64,000 nucleotides of DNA from a virus. The stretch spans positions 95,511 to 159,510 of the IMG/VR virus record IMGVR_UViG_3300044535_002275; one strand, 5' to 3'. How positions within the stretch are numbered: the first letter of the stretch is position 1; the number at the start of each line of letters is the position of its first letter. The position numbers were made by a program, and so were the translations under genes. A model generated the notes under the pieces. That model did no database searches. It was not told where the DNA came from and saw nothing but the letters and a program-made list of their open reading frames with translations. Positions 1 to 9,106 of the stretch are shown here, piece by piece.

Positions 1-61
1 ATTCGAACCAGCGACCTCCAGGTTATGAGCCTAGCGGGATGACCAACTTCCCTACCCTGCG
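1..61 (-). tRNA. tRNA-Met(CAT), probably initiator; 3' end truncated by window
   Basis: minus strand CGCAGGG...GGCT-CAT-AACC...GGTTCGAAT; 5' C typical of fMet. Confidence 0.85.
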
Positions 62-74
62 ATTGATTGTTCAA

Positions 75-273
75 TGGCCACTTGCGTCCCCGCTAGCCCC
101 ATTCTGAGTTGTCTACCCTGTCGATCCATTTATTTTTCTGGACAGGTTGGCTCCTGCCCTACGGTGTTTTCAAGACGCGGCGGTAATGCCGCCTTGAGGA
201 CTGACCGTATGTACCCTGCTGGTATGGCTGCAGCAATCGCCCCCTATACTTACGAGTAGGGATCCCGGGATTC
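75..273 (-). ncRNA. putative structured ncRNA between tRNAs
   Basis: GC-rich, several nested hairpins, no credible ORF. Confidence 0.45.
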
Positions 274-280
274 TAAAAGT

Positions 281-358
281 TGGCGACTCGGACGGGATTC
301 GAACCCGTGATCTCTTGCGTGACAGGCAAGCGTATTAGGCCAACTATACTACCGAGCC
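281..358 (-). tRNA. tRNA-Asp(GTC)
   Basis: cloverleaf, loop CT-GTC-AC, encoded CCA. Confidence 0.95.
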
Positions 359-362
359 AATT

Positions 363-446
363 TGGTGGAGGTGGTAGGGATCGAACCTACCTGGCGTTAG
401 CCCACGAATTTACAGTCCGCTGTCCCACCGTTGGAACATCACCTCC
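363..446 (-). tRNA. tRNA-Tyr(GTA)
   Basis: loop CT-GTA-AA, long variable arm, CCA. Confidence 0.93.
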
Positions 447-475
447 AAAAACTTTTGTGTTGCTATTATAGCAAC

Positions 476-590
476 GCCATATTGAAGCACACTGACTTCC
501 ACGGGATGACATCAGACGAATCTGCAACTTCCCCTTCAACGACAGTATCAGAGGGTGGAGTCGAACCACCACAGCGTGCTTCAATATGGC
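476..590 (-). ncRNA. long-stem RNA enclosing a tRNA T-arm (Y-RNA/YrlA-like topology)
   Basis: 19-nt inverted repeat 476-494/572-590 (one G-U) enclosing GGTGG-TTCGACT-CCACC. Confidence 0.45.
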
Positions 591-640
591 TCCCCAATCT
601 TGTCACAGTTGTGTGCTACTATCAACTGAGCTATTGGAGA
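587..640 (-). pseudogene. 54-nt tRNA remnant (acceptor stem, D-arm, CCA, no T-arm)
   Basis: TCTCCAA-TAGCTCAGTTG...TTGGGGA-GCCA. Confidence 0.5.
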
Positions 641-682
641 ATAGTTTGTTTTTAAAGAAAACAAATTACTTACTGTAGTACT

Positions 683-711
683 ATTATAACAAAAGTTGAT
701 TAACGTGTCAA
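683..711 (-). promoter_or_regulatory. sigma70 promoter
   Basis: TTGACA-17-TATAAT. Confidence 0.85.
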
Positions 712-719
712 CTGTGTTG

Positions 720-1142
720 TTACATGATTTCTTTGTACAAAGAACCGTTGTATTTTCTCAACGCCTGATCAACATCTTGCTTCAGTAAAGCAACAACCTC
801 GTCGGCAGATGAATAAATTAACCCTGCTTCTTCCAACGCAGATCGACGTAGCAATTCGCTAGCCTGAGTCCATCCCCAGACCGCACTGTCGGATCCAAAT
901 GCCAACTTAGGCCATCTTGTTTCAATCCAGCTCGACAGATGTTTTAATGCTGTTATAGTATTGGCCGGATGACTGCGAGAAATAGCAGAAAACCAATCGT
1001 TACTTAAAAGAGAAGAAAAAAAAGAACCAGGCTCTAGGCCGTGGATCAAATAACGATACATGGGACTGTAATATTCTGGCTCAACCTCCCACTCACTAGC
1101 ACTTTTTGCCAGCAGTAACTTTGAGTGTATTGTTAGGTTCAT
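720..1142 (-). CDS. hypothetical protein
   Basis: 140 aa ORF between tRNAs. Confidence 0.7.
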   Translation of the reverse strand: MNLTIHSKLLLAKSASEWEVEPEYYSPMYRYLIHGLEPGSFFSSLLSNDWFSAISRSHPANTITALKHLSSWIETRWPKLAFGSDSAVWGWTQASELLRRSALEEAGLIYSSADEVVALLKQDVDQALRKYNGSLYKEIM

Positions 1143-1155
1143 GGTATCAAAAATG

Positions 1156-1230
1156 TGGTACTCCGTAGGGGAGTCGAACCCCTCTTGCAGGAATGAAAAT
1201 CCTGAGTCCTAACCGATAGACGAACGGAGC
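1156..1230 (-). tRNA. tRNA-Glu(TTC)
   Basis: loop TT-TTC-AT, CCA. Confidence 0.93.
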
Positions 1231-1236
1231 ATTAAG

Positions 1237-1310
1237 TGGAGCAGGGTAAGAGAATCGAACTCTCCGCATCAGCTTGGAAGGCTGAGGTATTACCACTATA
1301 CGAACCCTGC
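1237..1310 (-). tRNA. tRNA-Gly(TCC)
   Basis: loop CT-TCC-AA, CCA. Confidence 0.95.
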
Positions 1311-1330
1311 TTGTTAATTACTATACTGCT

Positions 1331-1390
1331 ATTATAACAACGGACTATTTAGTTGTCAATGATTTTCGATGCCTGTTGCATTTCTACAAC
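1331..1390 (-). promoter_or_regulatory. sigma70 promoter with upstream GTTG-N8-CAAC palindrome
   Basis: TTGACA-17-TATAAT at 1359-1331; palindrome 1375-1390. Confidence 0.8.
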
Positions 1391-1401
1391 TAAATATTTC
1401 T

Positions 1402-2220
1402 ATGATAATATTATTTGGATGCAGTTGGGCAAGAAATGCCTGGGCACACACCAGTCAAGAATCTACATATGGTTATAAGCACTGGAGACTGCCTGATACC
1501 TGGGCAATAAATTCTCCCAACTGGTTGAATTCTTTTTTTACCAAAGACACAGTGGTAAATTTTGCTAGATACGCTAATACCAATGATTGGATGATTAGAG
1601 ATCTTTATCACGCTACCAACACTGTATCAAACTTTCCTGATCGAGTGGATTTCTTAGTGTTTCAAACAGATCCCTTGCGCATATTCGCTCCCAGACAAGA
1701 CTACAATGATTACAACATTGTTTGGCCTAATTTTGTAGCTTGGGCCGAAAAGAAACAGTTTGATTGGCAAACTCGCTCATTTGATGATATGCTGGAAGTC
1801 ATTTATAGAGATTATTATCAAAACTTAGTAAGTTTTCAAAGTTCCAGTCAGTATATGAATCCCGGAAAAGATATAAATCTTTGGTTAGTAGGCGGTGTCA
1901 GTCGTGTGCATCCGTGTATCAAGGATTTTGATCTTTGTACAATCATCGATAGCTTAACTGGATTTTTTGGATTTGCCAACGACTGTTGCCTTGAGAATCG
2001 TGCTAGTCTTATTAGCCTCACAAAATTTTGGGGAGATAAGCTAACTGATCCGGCAAAAAAACATGCACTTCGGGAAGCATGGAAACACTACGATGACTTA
2101 TTACAACAGAAGGAAGATTTTTGGGTCGAAAATCAGGAACTCTTTGCTGGCCGGCATACAACCGAAAAAGCCATGCAACAAATCGCCAAACACATAGAAT
2201 CTCAAATAGGATTGGGGTGA
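1402..2220 (+). CDS. SGNH-like hypothetical protein
   Basis: N-terminal IILFGCSW and late GRH; ATG 1402 follows TAAATA. Confidence 0.65.
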   Translation: MIILFGCSWARNAWAHTSQESTYGYKHWRLPDTWAINSPNWLNSFFTKDTVVNFARYANTNDWMIRDLYHATNTVSNFPDRVDFLVFQTDPLRIFAPRQDYNDYNIVWPNFVAWAEKKQFDWQTRSFDDMLEVIYRDYYQNLVSFQSSSQYMNPGKDINLWLVGGVSRVHPCIKDFDLCTIIDSLTGFFGFANDCCLENRASLISLTKFWGDKLTDPAKKHALREAWKHYDDLLQQKEDFWVENQELFAGRHTTEKAMQQIAKHIESQIGLG

Positions 2221-2287
2221 CTAACGGGGTTCGAACCCGTGACGACAGATCCACAATCTGTAGTGTTGCCGCTACACTATAGTCACC
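2213..2287 (-). tRNA. tRNA-His(GTG)
   Basis: loop TT-GTG-GA, G-1, CCA. Confidence 0.93.
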
Positions 2288-2373
2288 ACTATAAAACTAA
2301 CTAACTTTTCTTTAGTTGAAATCTGCAGCTCTAAATCCATAAATACGTGACAACTATTTTTACAGGAGCTGTT

Positions 2374-2826
2374 ATGTCGAATAAAGACTACAAAGAAATG
2401 AGTGCAAGCGAAAAGAAAAAAGAAGATTGGATGAATTCAAAATGGCGTCCAATGATGGGTTGGATGTACATGGCAGTGTGTATGGCTGACTTTGTGCTGT
2501 TTCCAGTTCTCTGGAGCCTAGTACAAGCAGCACACGGCGGTAGCGTACAAACACAGTGGAACCCAATTACACTACAAGGCGCAGGCCTGTTCCACATGGC
2601 CATGGGTGCTATTTTGGGTATTGCAGCATTTGGTCGTACACAAGAAAAGATGGCCGGTGCTAACAATGGCGGAATTGCTGCAGCACCTGCAGCCAGTTCG
2701 TTCTCTGCACCACCAGCAACCAGTTTTAGCGCACCTACCCCTACCCCAGCACCTGCCAGTTTCAACAGCGGCGGAATTGCAGCAGGTAAAGCTCGCCCGG
2801 CTGAATTTGAGCATCCGGCAATTTAA
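2374..2826 (+). CDS. holin (3TM / GTA-holin-like)
   Basis: KWRPMMGW...ILGIAAFGRTQEK, hydrophobic helices, AGGAG RBS, upstream of endolysin. Confidence 0.7.
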   Translation: MSNKDYKEMSASEKKKEDWMNSKWRPMMGWMYMAVCMADFVLFPVLWSLVQAAHGGSVQTQWNPITLQGAGLFHMAMGAILGIAAFGRTQEKMAGANNGGIAAAPAASSFSAPPATSFSAPTPTPAPASFNSGGIAAGKARPAEFEHPAI

Positions 2827-2839
2827 TAAGGAAAACAAA

Positions 2840-3067
2840 ATGAAATTAATATACTCAACTATTTTAGCACTGAGCCTTGTTGCCGGTGTTCACGCACAAG
2901 ACACCAAACCTGCTGCGAACAAAGGCGAAAAGAAAGAAGTCTGCACCGACGTCAAAGACAAGGCTGGTGCTGTGGTCAAGAACAAAGACGGCACGGTCAA
3001 ACAAACTTGCAAAACCATCACTGTGCGTAAGAAGTACGAAGGTACTGCAGTTCCCGACAAAAAATAA
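2840..3067 (+). CDS. small secreted protein
   Basis: signal peptide MKLIYSTILALSLVAGVHA, two Cys, AAGGA RBS. Confidence 0.7.
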   Translation: MKLIYSTILALSLVAGVHAQDTKPAANKGEKKEVCTDVKDKAGAVVKNKDGTVKQTCKTITVRKKYEGTAVPDKK

Positions 3068-3077
3068 GGAGTACTAG

Positions 3078-3932
3078 ATGGCTTTTAATTTTAATTTTAC
3101 TCAACAACAACTAGCGCAGTTAATTCCCGGCAACCCTTACGTAGCACAATGGTATTCTGCACTGAACATGATCTTGCCTGACTACGGAATTGATACTGTG
3201 CCACGTGTAGCAGCGTTTGTTGCTCAATGTGCGCACGAAAGTGCCAACTTCAAGTTCTTGAAAGAAAACTTGAACTACAAGGCCGAAAGCCTGATGCGAG
3301 TCTGGCCCAGTCGTTTCCCTTCGATAGATGTTGCTCGTCAATATGCCATGCAGCCAGAAAAGATTGCCAATAAGGTCTATGGTGGCCGCATGGGCAATGG
3401 CACAGAAGAAACCGGTGACGGATGGCGTTACGCCGGCAAAGGTCTTATTCAGTTGACTGGCAAGGACAACTACACACGCTTTGCTGAAAGTATTGACACC
3501 CCAGTGGAAGAAATTCCTGAATACCTACAGACATTTGAAGGTGCTGTGCAAAGTGCCTGTTGGTTCTGGGAAGTCAACAATTTAAATCAGTGGGCCGATG
3601 CCGGCGATATACTAACCTTGACCAAACGCATCAACGGTGGTGTCATTGGCCTGGAAGATCGCAAAAAGCACTATGCACATGCTTTGCATGTGTTGGGTGG
3701 CGATTCAGCACACCATGTTGCAGAAAGTTCTGCCGCTGTCAACACTGCTCAAGTTCTACGACGCGGCAGTCGTGGGGACACTGTGGCTGCCATGCAGATC
3801 AAACTGGGATTGAGCGGAGACGGTGACTTTGGTCCAGCAACAGAACGTGCTCTAATGGGTTGGCAGCGTGAAAACGGATTAGAACCCGACGGCGTTGCTG
3901 GTCCCGCGACACTAGCCAAATTGTTGGCCTAA
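3078..3932 (+). CDS. endolysin, GH19 plus C-terminal peptidoglycan-binding domain
   Basis: AQCAHES, ENLNY, GKGLIQLTGKDNY, RINGG; DGDFGPAT/DGVAGPAT. Confidence 0.93.
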   Translation: MAFNFNFTQQQLAQLIPGNPYVAQWYSALNMILPDYGIDTVPRVAAFVAQCAHESANFKFLKENLNYKAESLMRVWPSRFPSIDVARQYAMQPEKIANKVYGGRMGNGTEETGDGWRYAGKGLIQLTGKDNYTRFAESIDTPVEEIPEYLQTFEGAVQSACWFWEVNNLNQWADAGDILTLTKRINGGVIGLEDRKKHYAHALHVLGGDSAHHVAESSAAVNTAQVLRRGSRGDTVAAMQIKLGLSGDGDFGPATERALMGWQRENGLEPDGVAGPATLAKLLA

Positions 3933-3936
3933 CATC

Positions 3937-4377
3937 ATGTGGCAAATCATGTGGATGCTGGGGTTGATACCAGCCTGGCTATGGCACGTATTACTGGGAG
4001 TTTCCCTGGTGACCATAGCTGCCACATATTTTCTACGCATGATTCCATTCTTTGGCACAAACGCAATTCAGTTGCGTTTTGTTGCTACACTGATATTGAT
4101 TTTTACTGTCTGGATGGAAGGCGGCATAGCCAACGAAGCCAAGTGGCAACAACGTATTCAAGACTTGGAAGCCCGAGTAGCTGCTGCTGAAAAGCAGGCT
4201 GCTGAAACCAATACCAAAATTGAAACAGTTTATGTTGATCGAGTTCAAGTGGTCAAAGAAATACAATATGTAGTTCGCAAAGATATTGAACGTGCTGCTA
4301 CCGAACTGGATGCCAACTGTCGTGTTTCGCCTCGTGCTATTGAACTATTAAATCAAGCCACAGGTGTTAAGAAATGA
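3937..4377 (+). CDS. i-spanin (Rz-like)
   Basis: TM helices plus coiled coil, follows endolysin. Confidence 0.7.
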   Translation: MWQIMWMLGLIPAWLWHVLLGVSLVTIAATYFLRMIPFFGTNAIQLRFVATLILIFTVWMEGGIANEAKWQQRIQDLEARVAAAEKQAAETNTKIETVYVDRVQVVKEIQYVVRKDIERAATELDANCRVSPRAIELLNQATGVKK

Positions 4378-4631
4378 AATTTATTGTCATTGCTGTTTTA
4401 CTAGTATTGACTGGTTGTGTTGCTCCGGTCAAACGAGAATTCCCTGTTATTCCACCCAGCTTGGAAAAGCCCTGTGGTAATTTATTAGATGTTCCAACCA
4501 CTACCCGACTCAGTAAAGTTCTTGAAGTAGTTACCGAAAACTATGCATTATATCGAGAGTGTCAGATCAAAAATGAAACTTGGCTAGATTGGTATCAAAA
4601 ACAAAAGAAGATATTTGATAGTGTAAAATAA
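4374..4631 (+). CDS. o-spanin (Rz1-like lipoprotein)
   Basis: lipobox LTGC, Pro-rich, overlaps i-spanin stop. Confidence 0.75.
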   Translation: MKFIVIAVLLVLTGCVAPVKREFPVIPPSLEKPCGNLLDVPTTTRLSKVLEVVTENYALYRECQIKNETWLDWYQKQKKIFDSVK

Positions 4632-4632
4632 T

Positions 4633-4708
4633 TGGTGCGCAGTGACGGGCTCGAACCGCCGACATTCTGCGTGTAAAGCAGACACTCTACCAACTGAGCT
4701 AACCGCGC
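4633..4708 (-). tRNA. tRNA-Val(TAC)
   Basis: loop TT-TAC-AC, CCA. Confidence 0.95.
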
Positions 4709-4714
4709 CGTATT

Positions 4715-4798
4715 TGGTGCTCCAGGTCGGACTCGAACCGACACGCCTTTCGGCACTAGTTCCTAAGACTAGCGTGGCTACCATTACACCACCGGAGC
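4715..4798 (-). tRNA. tRNA-Leu(TAG)
   Basis: loop CT-TAG-GA, long variable arm. Confidence 0.95.
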
Positions 4799-4828
4799 TT
4801 TATAAATATAACTCTTAGAGGAATACTT

Positions 4829-5269
4829 ATGAAAAAATTATTACTTGCATTACTATTTGTACCTGCGATTGCTGTATCTCAAACACCAAAAGAACCTGTG
4901 GGCGTCACATACGATGCTCAAATCATCCGCGTCAGCGACGGCGATACCATTGTGATTGCTGCTGCATTTTTGCCACCGCCCTTGAAGCCTGAGCTAGCTG
5001 TGCGTATCTACGGAGTTGACACTCCGGAAAAAGGACACAGAGCACAATGTCCTCAAGAAGCAGCACGAGCCGAACAAGCATCGGCTTGGACCAAACAGCT
5101 GATTGCCAGCAGCACCAAGCGTCAAGTGATCTTATACAAGTGGGACAAGTTCGGCGGTCGTGTGATCGGCGACATCATCGTCAACGGTCAAAGTGTGCGT
5201 CGCGGACTTATTGCTAATGGTTTTGCCAGAGAATACTACGGCGAAGCAAAAACCAGCTGGTGTAACTAA
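4829..5269 (+). CDS. thermonuclease (SNase family) with signal peptide
   Basis: VSDGDTI, VRIYGVDTPE, DKFGGRVIG; TATAAATA at 4801-4808. Confidence 0.9.
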   Translation: MKKLLLALLFVPAIAVSQTPKEPVGVTYDAQIIRVSDGDTIVIAAAFLPPPLKPELAVRIYGVDTPEKGHRAQCPQEAARAEQASAWTKQLIASSTKRQVILYKWDKFGGRVIGDIIVNGQSVRRGLIANGFAREYYGEAKTSWCN

Positions 5270-5493
5270 TCTCTACGCATCTTCCAAGTGTAGTTTTCTC
5301 CGCTTGGAAGACGTCCATCTTTAACACTGTCAACACCCATGGCACCAACTTGGTTGGCATTTTCTCCAACCATAGCAACATAAGCTCGACCTTGAGTGCG
5401 TAGACGATTGGCTTGTGTCAAGGCTTCGACCATTTCTGCATAATCTTCGCTGCATGCTGTTCCGTTAGGATCAGTCCAATAAACTTTGTACAT
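5266..5493 (-). CDS. hypothetical protein
   Basis: start at MYKVYW, just downstream of tRNA-Phe. Confidence 0.7.
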   Translation of the reverse strand: MYKVYWTDPNGTACSEDYAEMVEALTQANRLRTQGRAYVAMVGENANQVGAMGVDSVKDGRLPSGENYTWKMRRD

Positions 5494-5508
5494 TACTTTC
5501 TCTTTATC

Positions 5509-5584
5509 TGGTGCCGACCCCCGGTTACGATCCGGATTCTCCAATTCTTCAGACTGGCGTGAGGACCACCTTCACCTGATCGGC
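5509..5584 (-). tRNA. tRNA-Phe(GAA)
   Basis: loop CT-GAA-GA, atypical T-loop, CCA. Confidence 0.85.
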
Positions 5585-5592
5585 ATTAATAT

Positions 5593-5682
5593 TGGCGGAA
5601 GTGGTAGGATTCGAACCCACGGTGCGTTTCCACACTTCAGTTTTCAAGACTGCTGCCTTAAGCCAGACTCAGCCACACTTCC
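5593..5682 (-). tRNA. tRNA-Ser(TGA)
   Basis: loop CT-TGA-AA, long variable arm. Confidence 0.95.
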
Positions 5683-5690
5683 TTTAAGGG

Positions 5691-5804
5691 TGAACAAAGA
5701 TATCCTCACTGCCACGACCAGATTTCCTTCGGCAGGGGTACGCCACTAGGCGGTTAGTAAAGATAACCCGTGTGCATTTAACACTGCTCGGATATCTTCG
5801 TTCA
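5691..5804 (-). ncRNA. putative structured ncRNA closed by a 15-nt terminal stem
   Basis: TGAACAAAGATATCC...GGATATCTTCGTTCA inverted repeat. Confidence 0.45.
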
Positions 5805-5809
5805 TTGGT

Positions 5810-5885
5810 TGGTGGTGAGAGAGGGACTTGAACCCCCGACCTTGCGAATATGAATCGCCTGCTCTACCAACTAAGCTATATCACC
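5810..5885 (-). tRNA. tRNA-Met(CAT), probably elongator
   Basis: loop TT-CAT-AT, CCA. Confidence 0.85.
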
Positions 5886-6050
5886 ATATTGAAACGTACT
5901 CTGACAAAATCCGGTAAGATTATGCGTTGATCGATCTACTTGAATACGTTTCACTATAATGACATTGATGAAATGCTTAATAAGAAAGAAGCATACCTTA
6001 ATCTTGGTTATAAGTTTCATTTACAGCTGGATCATAAATTATTAGAAAAC

Positions 6051-6126
6051 TGGTAGGGGCACTGGGGTACGATCCCAGAAAGCGACATTAAAAGTGTCAT
6101 ATGATATCCATTTTCATCATACCCCC
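6051..6126 (-). tRNA. tRNA-Lys(TTT)
   Basis: loop CT-TTT-AA, CCA. Confidence 0.88.
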
Positions 6127-6252
6127 ACTGTCTTTAATCTTTACTTCTCTACGCAAGGCCTTGTTGCTCTTGCGGTGACTTCCTGCCCCTGTCTTTTGTA
6201 GTACCAGGCAAACGAAGGGGTTACGTTTGGGTACGGTCAGTTTAGACTTCAT
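6097..6252 (-). CDS. 51-aa basic peptide; stop codon lies inside tRNA-Lys
   Basis: AAGGAG RBS; MKSKLTVPKRNPFVCLVLQKTGAGSHRKSNKALRREVKIKDSGGMMKMDII. Confidence 0.6.
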   Translation of the reverse strand: MKSKLTVPKRNPFVCLVLQKTGAGSHRKSNKALRREVKIKDSGGMMKMDII

Positions 6253-6267
6253 AACTACTCCTTAAAA

Positions 6268-6558
6268 TTATGTTACTTTTTGTTTGTTTTTAACGGCACT
6301 AAGCAATGTTGACGCACGTTTGAGGTCAAAGTTTTTGTGGCGGTACATGTAGGTTTTTTTACGTTCCGCTACTACTAGAGCTTGTGCCAACATGTACTTC
6401 TCATTAAAATTTAGAGACCGCATCATGGCGTCTTGCATGTCCACGACATCTAGTGCATACTCCAGCCACTTCTCTGTTGCTTTAATGCTGTCGTAAGTGC
6501 TAAAGCCCGCAGACTTGTTGCTGGTGTTGTATTTGTTAATAAAGTTGCGAGCTTGCAT
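6268..6558 (-). CDS. hypothetical protein
   Basis: AAGGAG RBS, behind promoter. Confidence 0.75.
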   Translation of the reverse strand: MQARNFINKYNTSNKSAGFSTYDSIKATEKWLEYALDVVDMQDAMMRSLNFNEKYMLAQALVVAERKKTYMYRHKNFDLKRASTLLSAVKNKQKVT

Positions 6559-6588
6559 AATAAACTCCTTGTTGATTAACAAGCAAGT

Positions 6589-6640
6589 ATTATAGCACTC
6601 AGCGAGTTAGTGGTCAAATCAACCGTTGCGTAATTACAAC
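6589..6640 (-). promoter_or_regulatory. sigma70 promoter with GTTG-N8-CAAC palindrome
   Basis: TTGACC-17-TATAAT at 6617-6589; palindrome 6625-6640. Confidence 0.8.
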
Positions 6641-6646
6641 AAGATG

Positions 6647-6720
6647 TGGCAGGCCCACAAGGGTTCGAACCTTGACTGACAGAATCAAAATCTGTAGTGC
6701 TACCATTACACTATGGACCA
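6647..6720 (-). tRNA. tRNA-Gln(TTG)
   Basis: loop TT-TTG-AT, CCA. Confidence 0.93.
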
Positions 6721-6726
6721 ACAAAA

Positions 6727-6801
6727 TGGCTCCCCAGGGTGGTTACGATCCACCGACCAAATGATTAACAGTCATCTACTCTACCGCTGAGCTACTGGGG
6801 A
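6727..6801 (-). tRNA. tRNA-Asn(GTT)
   Basis: loop CT-GTT-AA, CCA. Confidence 0.93.
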
Positions 6802-6852
6802 ATAAAACTTTACTATAACTCTATTATAACTAAAACTGCATTACCGGTCAAC

Positions 6853-7333: not shown

Positions 7334-7410
7334 TGGCCGGTCCTGAGAGACTCGAACTCCCAACCTCCAGTTTCGAAGACTGGCACTCTATCCAATTGAG
7401 TTAAGGACCG
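7334..7410 (-). tRNA. tRNA-Arg(TCG)
   Basis: loop CT-TCG-AA, CCA. Confidence 0.93.
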
Positions 7411-7415
7411 TGTTG

Positions 7416-7510
7416 TGGTAGTAGCGTAGAGATTCGAACTCTATCGTTGCAGCCCATCTGACCGCTCTCCCAGGTTTATAAAACCCGGCCGCATACCAAT
7501 GCTCGCTACC
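7416..7510 (-). tRNA. non-canonical tRNA, anticodon TAT (Ile codon AUA)
   Basis: 7-bp acceptor, 4-nt D-loop, loop TT-TAT-AA, long variable hairpin, normal T-arm, CCA. Confidence 0.75.
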
Positions 7511-7528
7511 GTTAATTAAATTGTGTTA

Positions 7529-7606
7529 TGGAGGACAGGGTCGGATTCAAACCGACGGTTGTAGAGATTTGCAGTCACTTGCCTTGGATCACTCGGCCAC
7601 CTGTCC
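7529..7606 (-). tRNA. tRNA-Cys(GCA)
   Basis: loop CT-GCA-AA, U discriminator. Confidence 0.92.
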
Positions 7607-7611
7607 ATATT

Positions 7612-7685
7612 TGGTGCTCCCAACAAGAATTGAACTTGTGATTCAGTCTTACCAAGACTGTGGTATACCACTTACCTATAGGAGC
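7612..7685 (-). tRNA. tRNA-Thr(GGT)
   Basis: loop TT-GGT-AA, CCA. Confidence 0.92.
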
Positions 7686-7734
7686 AAGAAAACCAAGGCG
7701 TACATTTCTGCAGAGGCCCTGGCCGTGTTTACTG

Positions 7735-8217
7735 CTATGCTGCTTGTTGCTGATTTAAAATTTCTTTTAAACGATCAGCACAGTAGGATGCAGCAAATGC
7801 CTGTGGTTTGACACGGGGAACTACATTACACATGCCACGTATGTAACCAATGGCTTCATTGACCACACAGCTGGATCCGTGCATTTCGTTGGGATTAATA
7901 TCTAGGTGTACTTCTACTAGACGATCTTCTAGTACCTCATTTAATTTTAAATAAAGTTCAGCAATCTTGTACACTTCGTTCATAAGTCGCATGCGTGGCT
8001 TGTCTTTCTTTTGATCCCAGTCACGTTCACGTTGTACTTCTCCAAAAATCTTACATCCGTTATTGCCATTGATATGCACCACAATGGCTAGGGTGTAATC
8101 AGCATACCAAGCACCGTTCAGTTGGAATCGTTCGCTGTCGCCACCGATGTAGATACGGGTAGCAGGACCTTGCGCAAGAACAAATTCCTTTACTTCTTCT
8201 ATATTGATACTGCGCAT
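7735..8217 (-). CDS. RNase H-like YkuK/DUF458 family protein
   Basis: IYIGGDS, RLMNEV, EVHLDIN, VKPQAFAASYCAD. Confidence 0.85.
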   Translation of the reverse strand: MRSINIEEVKEFVLAQGPATRIYIGGDSERFQLNGAWYADYTLAIVVHINGNNGCKIFGEVQRERDWDQKKDKPRMRLMNEVYKIAELYLKLNEVLEDRLVEVHLDINPNEMHGSSCVVNEAIGYIRGMCNVVPRVKPQAFAASYCADRLKEILNQQQAA

Positions 8218-8243
8218 GTAACACCTTTGTGGTTAAACTAATT

Positions 8244-8319
<76 letters not shown>

Positions 8320-8326
8320 ATAAACT

Positions 8327-8402
8327 TGGAGCGGCTAACCGGGTTCGAACCGATGACGTCTTGCTTGGCAAGCAAGTACTCTACCAACTGAGCTACAGCC
8401 GC
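8327..8402 (-). tRNA. tRNA-Gly(GCC)
   Basis: loop TT-GCC-AA, CCA. Confidence 0.95.
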
Positions 8403-8445
8403 ATTAAATTATTTTACTACATAGCTGTGTATATAGTAACAAACT

Positions 8446-8519
8446 TGGTGGACCGTGAGAGAATCGAACTCTCAACTCCGGCTTGCAAAGCCAGTGTTAT
8501 CCCATTTAACTAACAGCCC
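8446..8519 (-). tRNA. tRNA-Ala(TGC)
   Basis: loop TT-TGC-AA, CCA. Confidence 0.93.
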
Positions 8520-8525
8520 ATAACT

Positions 8526-8601
8526 TGGTCTGAGTACAAGGATTTGAACCTTGGACGCCTGGTCCCAAACCAGGTATGTTACCAGACTACACTATACTCA
8601 G
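8526..8601 (-). tRNA. tRNA-Pro(GGG)
   Basis: loop TT-GGG-AC, CCA. Confidence 0.92.
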
Positions 8602-8609
8602 ATACGACT

Positions 8610-8683
8610 TGGTTCTCACGAGAAGAATTGAACTTCTGTCTATCGGTTATCAGCCGATTGCTCTACCATTGAGCTACATGAGA
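8610..8683 (-). tRNA. tRNA-Ile(GAT)
   Basis: loop CT-GAT-AA, CCA. Confidence 0.93.
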
Positions 8684-8733: not shown

Positions 8734-8859
8734 CACAGGCCTTCCCTGTGCTGCCTATTTTACTTTCGTTGTTACCGCCAACGATTTCATCCAGGACTCC
8801 GCCCATTCGAACATGTTTAGCGTGGGCTCTGGGTTCTCGTTACCCATTCCACGTACTAC

Positions 8860-8897
8860 AAAAGCAAAAACCCCAGGGTTTTTAATCCTGGGGTCTT
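8860..8897 (-). terminator. intrinsic terminator of the putative attenuator
   Basis: AAGACCCCAGG-ATTAAAAAC-CCTGGGGTTTT followed by TGCTTTT. Confidence 0.85.
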
Positions 8898-8941
8898 GGT
8901 TAAGAATATACGGACTGTGTATATGGTCTAACCAAGACCCC
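8890..8941 (-). promoter_or_regulatory. antiterminator helix
   Basis: perfect 13-bp inverted repeat 8929-8941 / 8890-8902, overlapping the terminator 5' arm and the leader stop codon. Confidence 0.8.
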
Positions 8942-9068
8942 CTGATGGCTCGCGATCGCTTGTAATCATCTCGACGGTTGCAAACCCGCAATTTGACCAA
9001 TAGGCTACTGTGCCTAGTTTGGGCTGTTGCGATATCTGCACGAAGTGATTAAGAGTGTTTATTTTCAT
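8928..9068 (-). CDS. 46-aa leader peptide containing all 20 amino acids
   Basis: MKINTLNHFVQISQQPKLGTVAYWSNCGFATVEMITSDREPSGGLG*; ATG 9 nt after the -10 box. Confidence 0.75.
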   Translation of the reverse strand: MKINTLNHFVQISQQPKLGTVAYWSNCGFATVEMITSDREPSGGLG

Positions 9069-9077
9069 ATTAAAGTA

Positions 9078-9106
9078 ATTGTACGTGTTTATTTATACCT
9101 TGTCAA
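9078..9106 (-). promoter_or_regulatory. sigma70 promoter with TATAAATA late motif in its spacer
   Basis: TTGACA-17-TACAAT; TATAAATA at 9097-9090. Confidence 0.85.

Follow-up and report, generated by a model that had tools for sequence, protein, structure and literature searches.

Leader-peptide attenuators and control of tRNA arrays

In classical amino-acid-operon attenuators, including trpL, hisL, pheL and leuL and the multivalent thrL and ilvGMEDA, the leader is built around runs of cognate codons for one to three amino acids; the genes under control encode biosynthetic enzymes or synthetases, and a leader that is not translated causes termination (superattenuation). Here we analyse a leader element that precedes a phage tRNA array and shares with trp/his-type attenuators a promoter, a short ORF, an overlapping antiterminator and intrinsic terminator, and a predicted logic in which ribosome position would decide. 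Unlike the trp, his, thr and ilv leaders, it has no codon runs, uses no codon more than twice and includes all 20 amino acids; tRNAs and an RNase H-like gene lie downstream, with no biosynthesis or synthetase gene among them; and superattenuation is not predicted, as the antiterminator dominates in free RNA, where the terminator has a probability of 0.016. The element probably works as a leader-peptide attenuator, yet it fails the tests that define the trp/his class.

The nearest published case is the whiB7/wblC uORF of mycobacteria, a general translation-stress transcription attenuator. Transcription terminates there once the uORF has been translated to its end and continues after a stall or loss of the start codon; which stresses are sensed depends on the amino acids in the uORF, and for sensing a single Trp codon is sufficient (10.1101/2023.06.02.543512). 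The M. smegmatis whiB7 uORF contains 19 of the 20 amino acids; whiB7 uORFs are 25–40% Ala, and those of several species miss amino acids (10.1101/2023.06.02.543512). Like whiB7, the phage element combines a diverse uORF with a terminator and antiterminator, and its stalled or untranslated state reads through, on the phage side in silico only. Unlike the Ala-rich, chromosomal whiB7 uORF, which gates a transcription factor, the phage leader is flat in composition, is selected for completeness and is placed to gate tRNA genes. Stalling on a uORF is also reported to lift premature termination at vmlR (PMC9226507), hflXr (PMC6310831) and msrD; these leaders answer drugs and gate resistance factors, whereas the phage leader would gate tRNAs.

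Induction of a tRNA array by stress is itself known. The Anabaena trn operon, a 26-gene tRNA array on a cyanobacterial plasmid, stays off until translational stress and is controlled by TrcR, a ribbon-helix-helix repressor acting at initiation (PMC10272220). It resembles the phage array, as modelled here, in being a stress-induced array of many tRNAs, and differs in having no leader ORF or RNA switch. A literature search for attenuator control of tRNA genes or arrays, with most subscription papers outside its reach, found none. The preliminary description of this locus knew of no described example of a general sensor of decoding capacity; the whiB7 uORF is such a precedent and the attenuator principle is known, but selection for completeness and a tRNA-gene target both appear to be without precedent in the literature searched.

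The leader element and its tRNA array

The window, the whole 64,000-nt stretch of DNA analysed here, belongs to a linear virus record of 159.5 kb rated 44% complete, and this length at so low a completeness rating makes the source probably a jumbo phage. A phage DNA polymerase is also encoded. The RNase H-like gene of the tRNA block has close cellular homologues in betaproteobacterial bins, which hints at the host group; among the cellular homologues examined in Alcaligenaceae and other betaproteobacterial bins, none has a tRNA array next to it.

Table 1. Features of the leader element, its tRNA array and two leaders from cultured phages. Positions refer to the window unless another locus is named.
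Feature	Position	Strand	Remarks
Sigma-70-type promoter, TTGACA-17-TACAAT	9078..9106	−	11/12 match
Leader ORF, 46 codons, near-leaderless	8928..9068	−	All 20 amino acids reached by codon 39
Hairpin within leader ORF	8979..9040	−	z −2.4; no contact with antiterminator strand
Antiterminator 5′ strand	8929..8941	−	Codons 43–46 and stop
Antiterminator 3′ strand	8890..8902	−	8897-8890 common to terminator 5′ side
Intrinsic terminator hairpin and U tract	8860..8897	−	−18.1 kcal/mol, z −3.8
Hairpin (GG-AACG-G-CC) and GGGCGG motif	8800..8853	−	Conserved, directly 3′ of terminator
First tRNA block	7334..8683	−	Ile(GAT), Pro, Ala, Gly(GCC), Trp, Thr(GGT), Cys, Ile(TAT), Arg(TCG) (ARAGORN)
RNase H-like gene (PF04308)	7735..8217	−	Within first tRNA block; bait for relatives
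Remaining array	1..6851	−	Asn, Gln, Lys, Met, Ser, Phe, Leu, Val, His, Gly, Glu, Tyr, Asp, Met
Promoter matches inside array	6851, 6617, 1359, 711	−	
tRNAs Met-CAT, Arg-TCT, Leu-TAA	10012..10262	−	5′ of leader, beyond its control
KVP40 leader	L166, 4271-4440		37 codons, 19 types; competing helix and terminator before main tRNA block; unannotated
nt-1 leader	L189, 438-610		37 codons, 19 types; competing helix and terminator before main tRNA block; unannotated

A short ORF sits between a promoter and a premature intrinsic terminator, an arrangement kept in relatives (Table 1). The consensus promoter, the near-leaderless 46-codon ORF, the intrinsic terminator and the 13-bp helix over the stop codon that excludes it, all proposed in the preliminary description, were each recovered, and its account of the composition agreed on recounting: the leader uses 35 different codons at most twice each, encodes Thr, Val, Ser and Gly by three different codons each and has 2 Ala in 46 codons. 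Missing from it are 26 sense codons. Its ATG lies 9 nt downstream of the −10 box; TTGAC and the −10 box are kept across nine aligned relatives, and homologues of the ORF in L001, L002 and L064 show 54–66% identity. Directly 5′ of the promoter lie a MazG-like gene and a methyltransferase gene (9394-9116 and 9990-9433, minus strand).

The antiterminator helix (8941-8929 : 8902-8890) takes in the first four bases of the terminator G–C stem. Its extended hairpin (−29.9 kcal/mol, z −4.8) is more stable than the terminator and prevails in free-RNA folding. The terminator core (8893-8887 : 8877-8871) closes a loop of 9 nt ahead of a U tract at 8870-8860, and a terminator scanner misses it only because the scanner's loop limit is 8. 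The hairpin within the ORF is a possible pause element. Past the terminator, the hairpin and GGGCGG motif are present in nine of nine aligned relatives (noted in the window, L001, L002, L004, L042, L064, L082, L083 and L176), with two-sided changes in two of the four predicted pairs; this structured RNA would be the first product of read-through, and no Rfam family matched it.

For the leader itself no Rfam model matched at gathering score (best match 19.3 bits against a cut-off of 55). No T-box or other curated Rfam leader was matched, tRNAs being the only Rfam matches within the window, and the leader peptide had no Pfam match. A second copy of the element was not found elsewhere in this genome, and neither the window element nor the L051 leader had a significant BLAST match among cultured phages. 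An exact-pattern scan of viral contigs for the 13-bp helix returned 0 matches because the helix sequence varies.

Within the window ARAGORN places 21 tRNAs 3′ of the leader. A Phe(GAA) cloverleaf at 5584-5509 (minus strand), with atypical D and T loops and missed by both ARAGORN and Rfam, and a Met tRNA truncated by the window edge bring the total to the 23 tRNAs for 20 amino acids counted previously; past the edge the array goes on to Ser(GCT) and Thr(TGT), followed by a tmRNA. The first block serves just eight amino-acid types. Four promoter matches lie inside the array, of which the one at 6851 (11/12, preceding tRNA-Asn/Gln) was absent from the earlier account, so that later blocks may be fed independently; internal promoter matches are also present in L143. 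The leader had been held to govern the first 11 tRNAs most directly, and the internal promoter matches behind that view were recovered, but the number becomes 9 if the 6851 match is real. Upstream of the leader, the three-tRNA layout recurs in L002, L064, L082, L083 and L089. A rule that leaders avoid the codons of upstream tRNAs was tried and rejected; it fits the window and L001 and fails in L082.

Several smaller features accompany the array. A 95-nt tRNA with a TAT anticodon (7510-7416, minus strand) has counterparts in L002, L008, L021, L082, L083 and L143, and the leader has ATA twice. A tRNA-like fragment 3′ of the 711 promoter match (641-590, minus strand) has a D arm and a GTG-containing loop with no clear T arm. 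Between tRNA-Asp and tRNA-Met, about 220 nt (280-62, minus strand) resemble a structured non-coding RNA and have no Rfam match at gathering score. The array end past the window (L190, 5682-6076, minus strand) holds a permuted, two-piece tmRNA with the tag AANDELFLAAA, and L088 likewise has a permuted tmRNA.

Amino-acid completeness in related leaders

All 20 amino acids occur in 2.5% of 46-codon windows of this genome's genes and in 2.5–2.8% of random ORFs, and a single complete leader ORF is weak evidence by itself. The comparison with 46-codon windows had been suggested for codon diversity as well. At least 35 different codons are found in 1% of gene windows but in 12–18% of random ORFs, and codon diversity was therefore dropped as separate evidence.

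We collected about 180 loci via the linked RNase H-like gene rather than via the leader, and called leaders by a composition-blind rule: a terminator had to lie at most 500 nt from a tRNA block, its 5′ arm had to be overlapped by a competing helix with a folding energy of −14 kcal/mol or stronger, and the stop codon of an ORF had to fall 10–32 nt into that helix. The rule gave 36 distinct leaders ahead of tRNA arrays. Of these, 29 contain all 20 amino acids, where 0.45–0.51 are expected, in a test limited by thresholds set after a looser scan had been inspected; at least 19 types are present in 32 of the 36. Among control ORFs before terminators, 7 of 305 are complete (10 expected), and the three complete ones among them with 34–58 codons also precede tRNAs and narrowly miss the rule. 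Other reading frames are complete in 3 of 180 cases. One seeming exception, L089, is complete in 32 codons if started at an upstream GTG, a post hoc correction. Relatives therefore contain what the preliminary description had proposed looking for, divergent complete leaders with the stop inside a covarying antiterminator before tRNA arrays.

Complete members occur in 8 of the 12 leader clusters formed at 60% identity and in 5 of the 8 formed at 45%. In the largest family (21 rows), 18 leaders are complete compared with a column-shuffle mean of 2.0 and maximum of 8 (0 of 5,000 shuffles), a result that alignment error could somewhat inflate. Together, the clusters and the column shuffles argue that shared ancestry is not the explanation. 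Within this family Tyr occurs exactly once in 21 of 21 leaders, spread over five columns, Cys is present in all 21 over five columns, and His is spread over seven. A residue lost at one site is regained at another, which points to selection on presence and not on position. Unlike the lone ORF, the relatives settle, as comparative evidence, that the complete composition is kept by selection.

Among relatives, leader ORFs range from 32 to 58 codons, with indels, and many are leaderless, with 6–10 nt between the −10 box and the ATG. In other families the first tRNA lies 41–130 nt past the terminator. L182 (6064-6400), a contig binned as Saccharibacteria, has a complete 58-codon leader with a helix after the stop, followed by more hairpins and terminators and then 18 tRNAs. 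In L107 (5100-5475), an HNH-like ORF, seen by eye, lies between a 25-codon leader switch and the tRNA block.

Cultured phages carry leaders of similar design. The KVP40-like vibriophages KVP40, VH7D, VS1, D482, F86, 1.081.O and nt-1 have a 37–38-codon ORF before a terminator and tRNAs, with 19 amino-acid types in six of the seven; Gly is missing from some and Cys from others, and the competing helix is weaker and begins at the stop codon. In the Xanthomonas phages BUDD and X1 the leader is 39 codons long and contains 18 types (BUDD) or 19 (X1), and the BUDD leader is followed by a competing hairpin of −30.9 kcal/mol. We treat the vibriophage and Xanthomonas phage leaders as examples of the same design as the window element, a likeness of design for which homology is not claimed. 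No leader was detected before the tRNA arrays of DLP_6 or RcXuper; for BUCT-ZZ01 and for L167 the array start lies beyond the stretch examined. The near-complete leaders of nt-1, a phage of Vibrio natriegens, and of KVP40 are unannotated in their records and offer cultured systems.

A predicted RNA switch and its competing readings

Both helices of the proposed switch are conserved. Across 16 members of the family, pairing is kept at 92% in the antiterminator and at 98% in the terminator, each with four pairs changed on both sides, and both helices exceed 500 of 500 shuffles in pairing and in covariation score, although relatedness among the 16 members can inflate the covariation counts. The two structures are mutually exclusive, and each is conserved with compensatory changes. 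As judged by comparative genomics, the leader is a real, conserved element under unusual and measurable selection, and its function is a proposal.

We modelled the switch by equilibrium folding of the window sequence with a masked ribosome footprint at three footprint edges. The terminator has a probability of 0.016 when the RNA carries no ribosome. This stays at or below 0.42 for A-site positions in codons 2–39 and is 1.0 from codon 42 to the stop. In the window, this agrees with the polarity suggested earlier, in which finishing the leader terminates transcription and a stall reads through; untranslated RNA likewise favours the antiterminator and hence read-through. The switch is predicted to flip right past Arg39, the last new amino acid, so that all 20 fall within the predicted sensing zone. 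This zone includes 33 of the 61 codons, and loss of some isoacceptors would consequently be missed. The preliminary description had proposed an any-codon sensor; with 26 sense codons absent and stalls at codons 40/42–46 still predicted to terminate, the element is better described as an any-amino-acid sampler. The distance from the last new amino acid to the helix is usually 4–14 nt in relatives. The sole Asp codon of the largest family lies 4–7 nt ahead, near enough that Asp sensing there may be poor or marginal.

We consider it likely that the element attenuates transcription in response to ribosome progress, checking the supply of charged tRNA for every one of the amino acids and controlling access to the phage tRNA array accordingly. 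This reading builds on observed anatomy, conservation, selection for completeness and covariation; leader translation, coupling and the physiological signal we infer. Host RNA polymerase would initiate at about 9072, and a ribosome would load at the near-leaderless AUG. If all 20 amino acids are decoded promptly, the ribosome at codons 41–47 would cover the antiterminator 5′ strand, and in silico the terminator then forms and transcription ends at about 8865. A ribosome lingering at codons 2–39, or one that does not load, is predicted to let the antiterminator form, with transcription of the structured RNA, the tRNAs and the RNase H-like gene. Where a stall stems from scarce or cleaved tRNA, fresh supply from the phage would relieve it, forming a negative-feedback loop. 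Amino-acid starvation or ribosome-targeting drugs would also trip the switch; because its product is tRNA, the sensible loop would be relief of tRNA shortage or cleavage, with starvation tripping the switch uncured. The phage thus probably raises tRNA output when ribosomes struggle with any amino acid.

A close alternative keeps the same machine and overlaps with this explanation while differing on what is selected: the leader would mirror the gated tRNA set and contain all 20 amino acids only because the array serves 20. We hold this to be quite possible, though short of likely. In L004 the leader encodes 17 types ahead of the helix, and these are precisely the 17 that the 22 tRNAs of this locus serve, but that contig stops 26 nt past its last tRNA and no longer version of it was found; the 25-codon L107 leader has 9 of the 11 types served by the tRNAs behind it; and the window leader lacks AGA and TTA, the codons of two tRNAs upstream, whereas the L082 leader uses TTA despite an upstream Leu-TAA. 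Cys is kept in the L143 and L158 leaders though no tRNA-Cys was found, the KVP40, BUDD, L029 and L158 leaders lack amino acids whose tRNAs are there, and the first block in the window has only eight types. Alternatively, single-codon stalls may be too brief and the element a timing switch for general ribosome activity, responsive to initiation failure, host shut-off or lost transcription–translation coupling. The predicted read-through of untranslated RNA fits such a switch, and leaderless starts may tie it to 70S availability, but one-copy upkeep of each rare amino acid while its position shifts would go unexplained, and we judge this reading unlikely.

The peptide itself could act, as an arrest peptide or a trans-acting small protein, with composition a by-product. 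Trans-acting leader peptides such as peTrpL have been published (PMC7968998). In the leaders analysed here Trp and short motifs hold position (YWS and DR-P in one family; LP, W and RP in another), and an arrest motif and an audit function could coexist in one leader; against an acting peptide stand lengths of 32–58 codons with indels, 12 clusters below 60% identity, completeness that persists while columns change and the lack of a Pfam match, which together make it very unlikely. It is highly improbable that the true target is the structured RNA or the RNase H-like gene past the terminator, with tRNAs mostly made from other promoters: the conserved hairpin and GGGCGG motif and the internal promoters would suit this, but in other families the first tRNA lies close behind the terminator, and tRNA adjacency is the common feature. 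A chance ORF ahead of an ordinary terminator, for which the 2.5% odds of all 20 at that length might be invoked, is scarcely credible, being contradicted by the completeness of relatives, the column shuffles, the masked folding and the helix covariation. Some points weigh against the attenuator reading as such. The four internal promoter matches could feed most tRNAs without the switch, leaders of 18–19 types often miss an amino acid that the array does serve, the DLP_6 and RcXuper arrays are without a detected leader, single codons would give short stalls, and Asp may be poorly sensed in the largest family.

Two reasons are debated for the full tRNA sets of large phages, codon bias and replacement of tRNAs lost to host nucleases or shut-off. 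On balance we lean towards a widespread class of phage attenuator, with relatives in cultured phages, in which a selected one-of-each sampler of the 20 amino acids serves as an RNA-only feedback gauge of total decoding capacity and, once the tRNA pool has been drained by host defences or shut-off, turns on the supply of replacements. If this is true, an array switched on by faltering decoding would be direct evidence for on-demand supply of rescue tRNAs, and the textbook attenuator design would be inverted, with selection for breadth instead of repeats. Dependence on single codons would make the question of tRNA purpose testable. A separate layer of control may act on the array transcript: boxA-like motifs of the TGTTCTTTAA type, seen by eye just 5′ of tRNA blocks in the window (about 660-645, minus strand) and also in L051 (about 655-670), L164 (about 7250) and L182 (about 6380), suggest rRNA-style antitermination of a long untranslated transcript.
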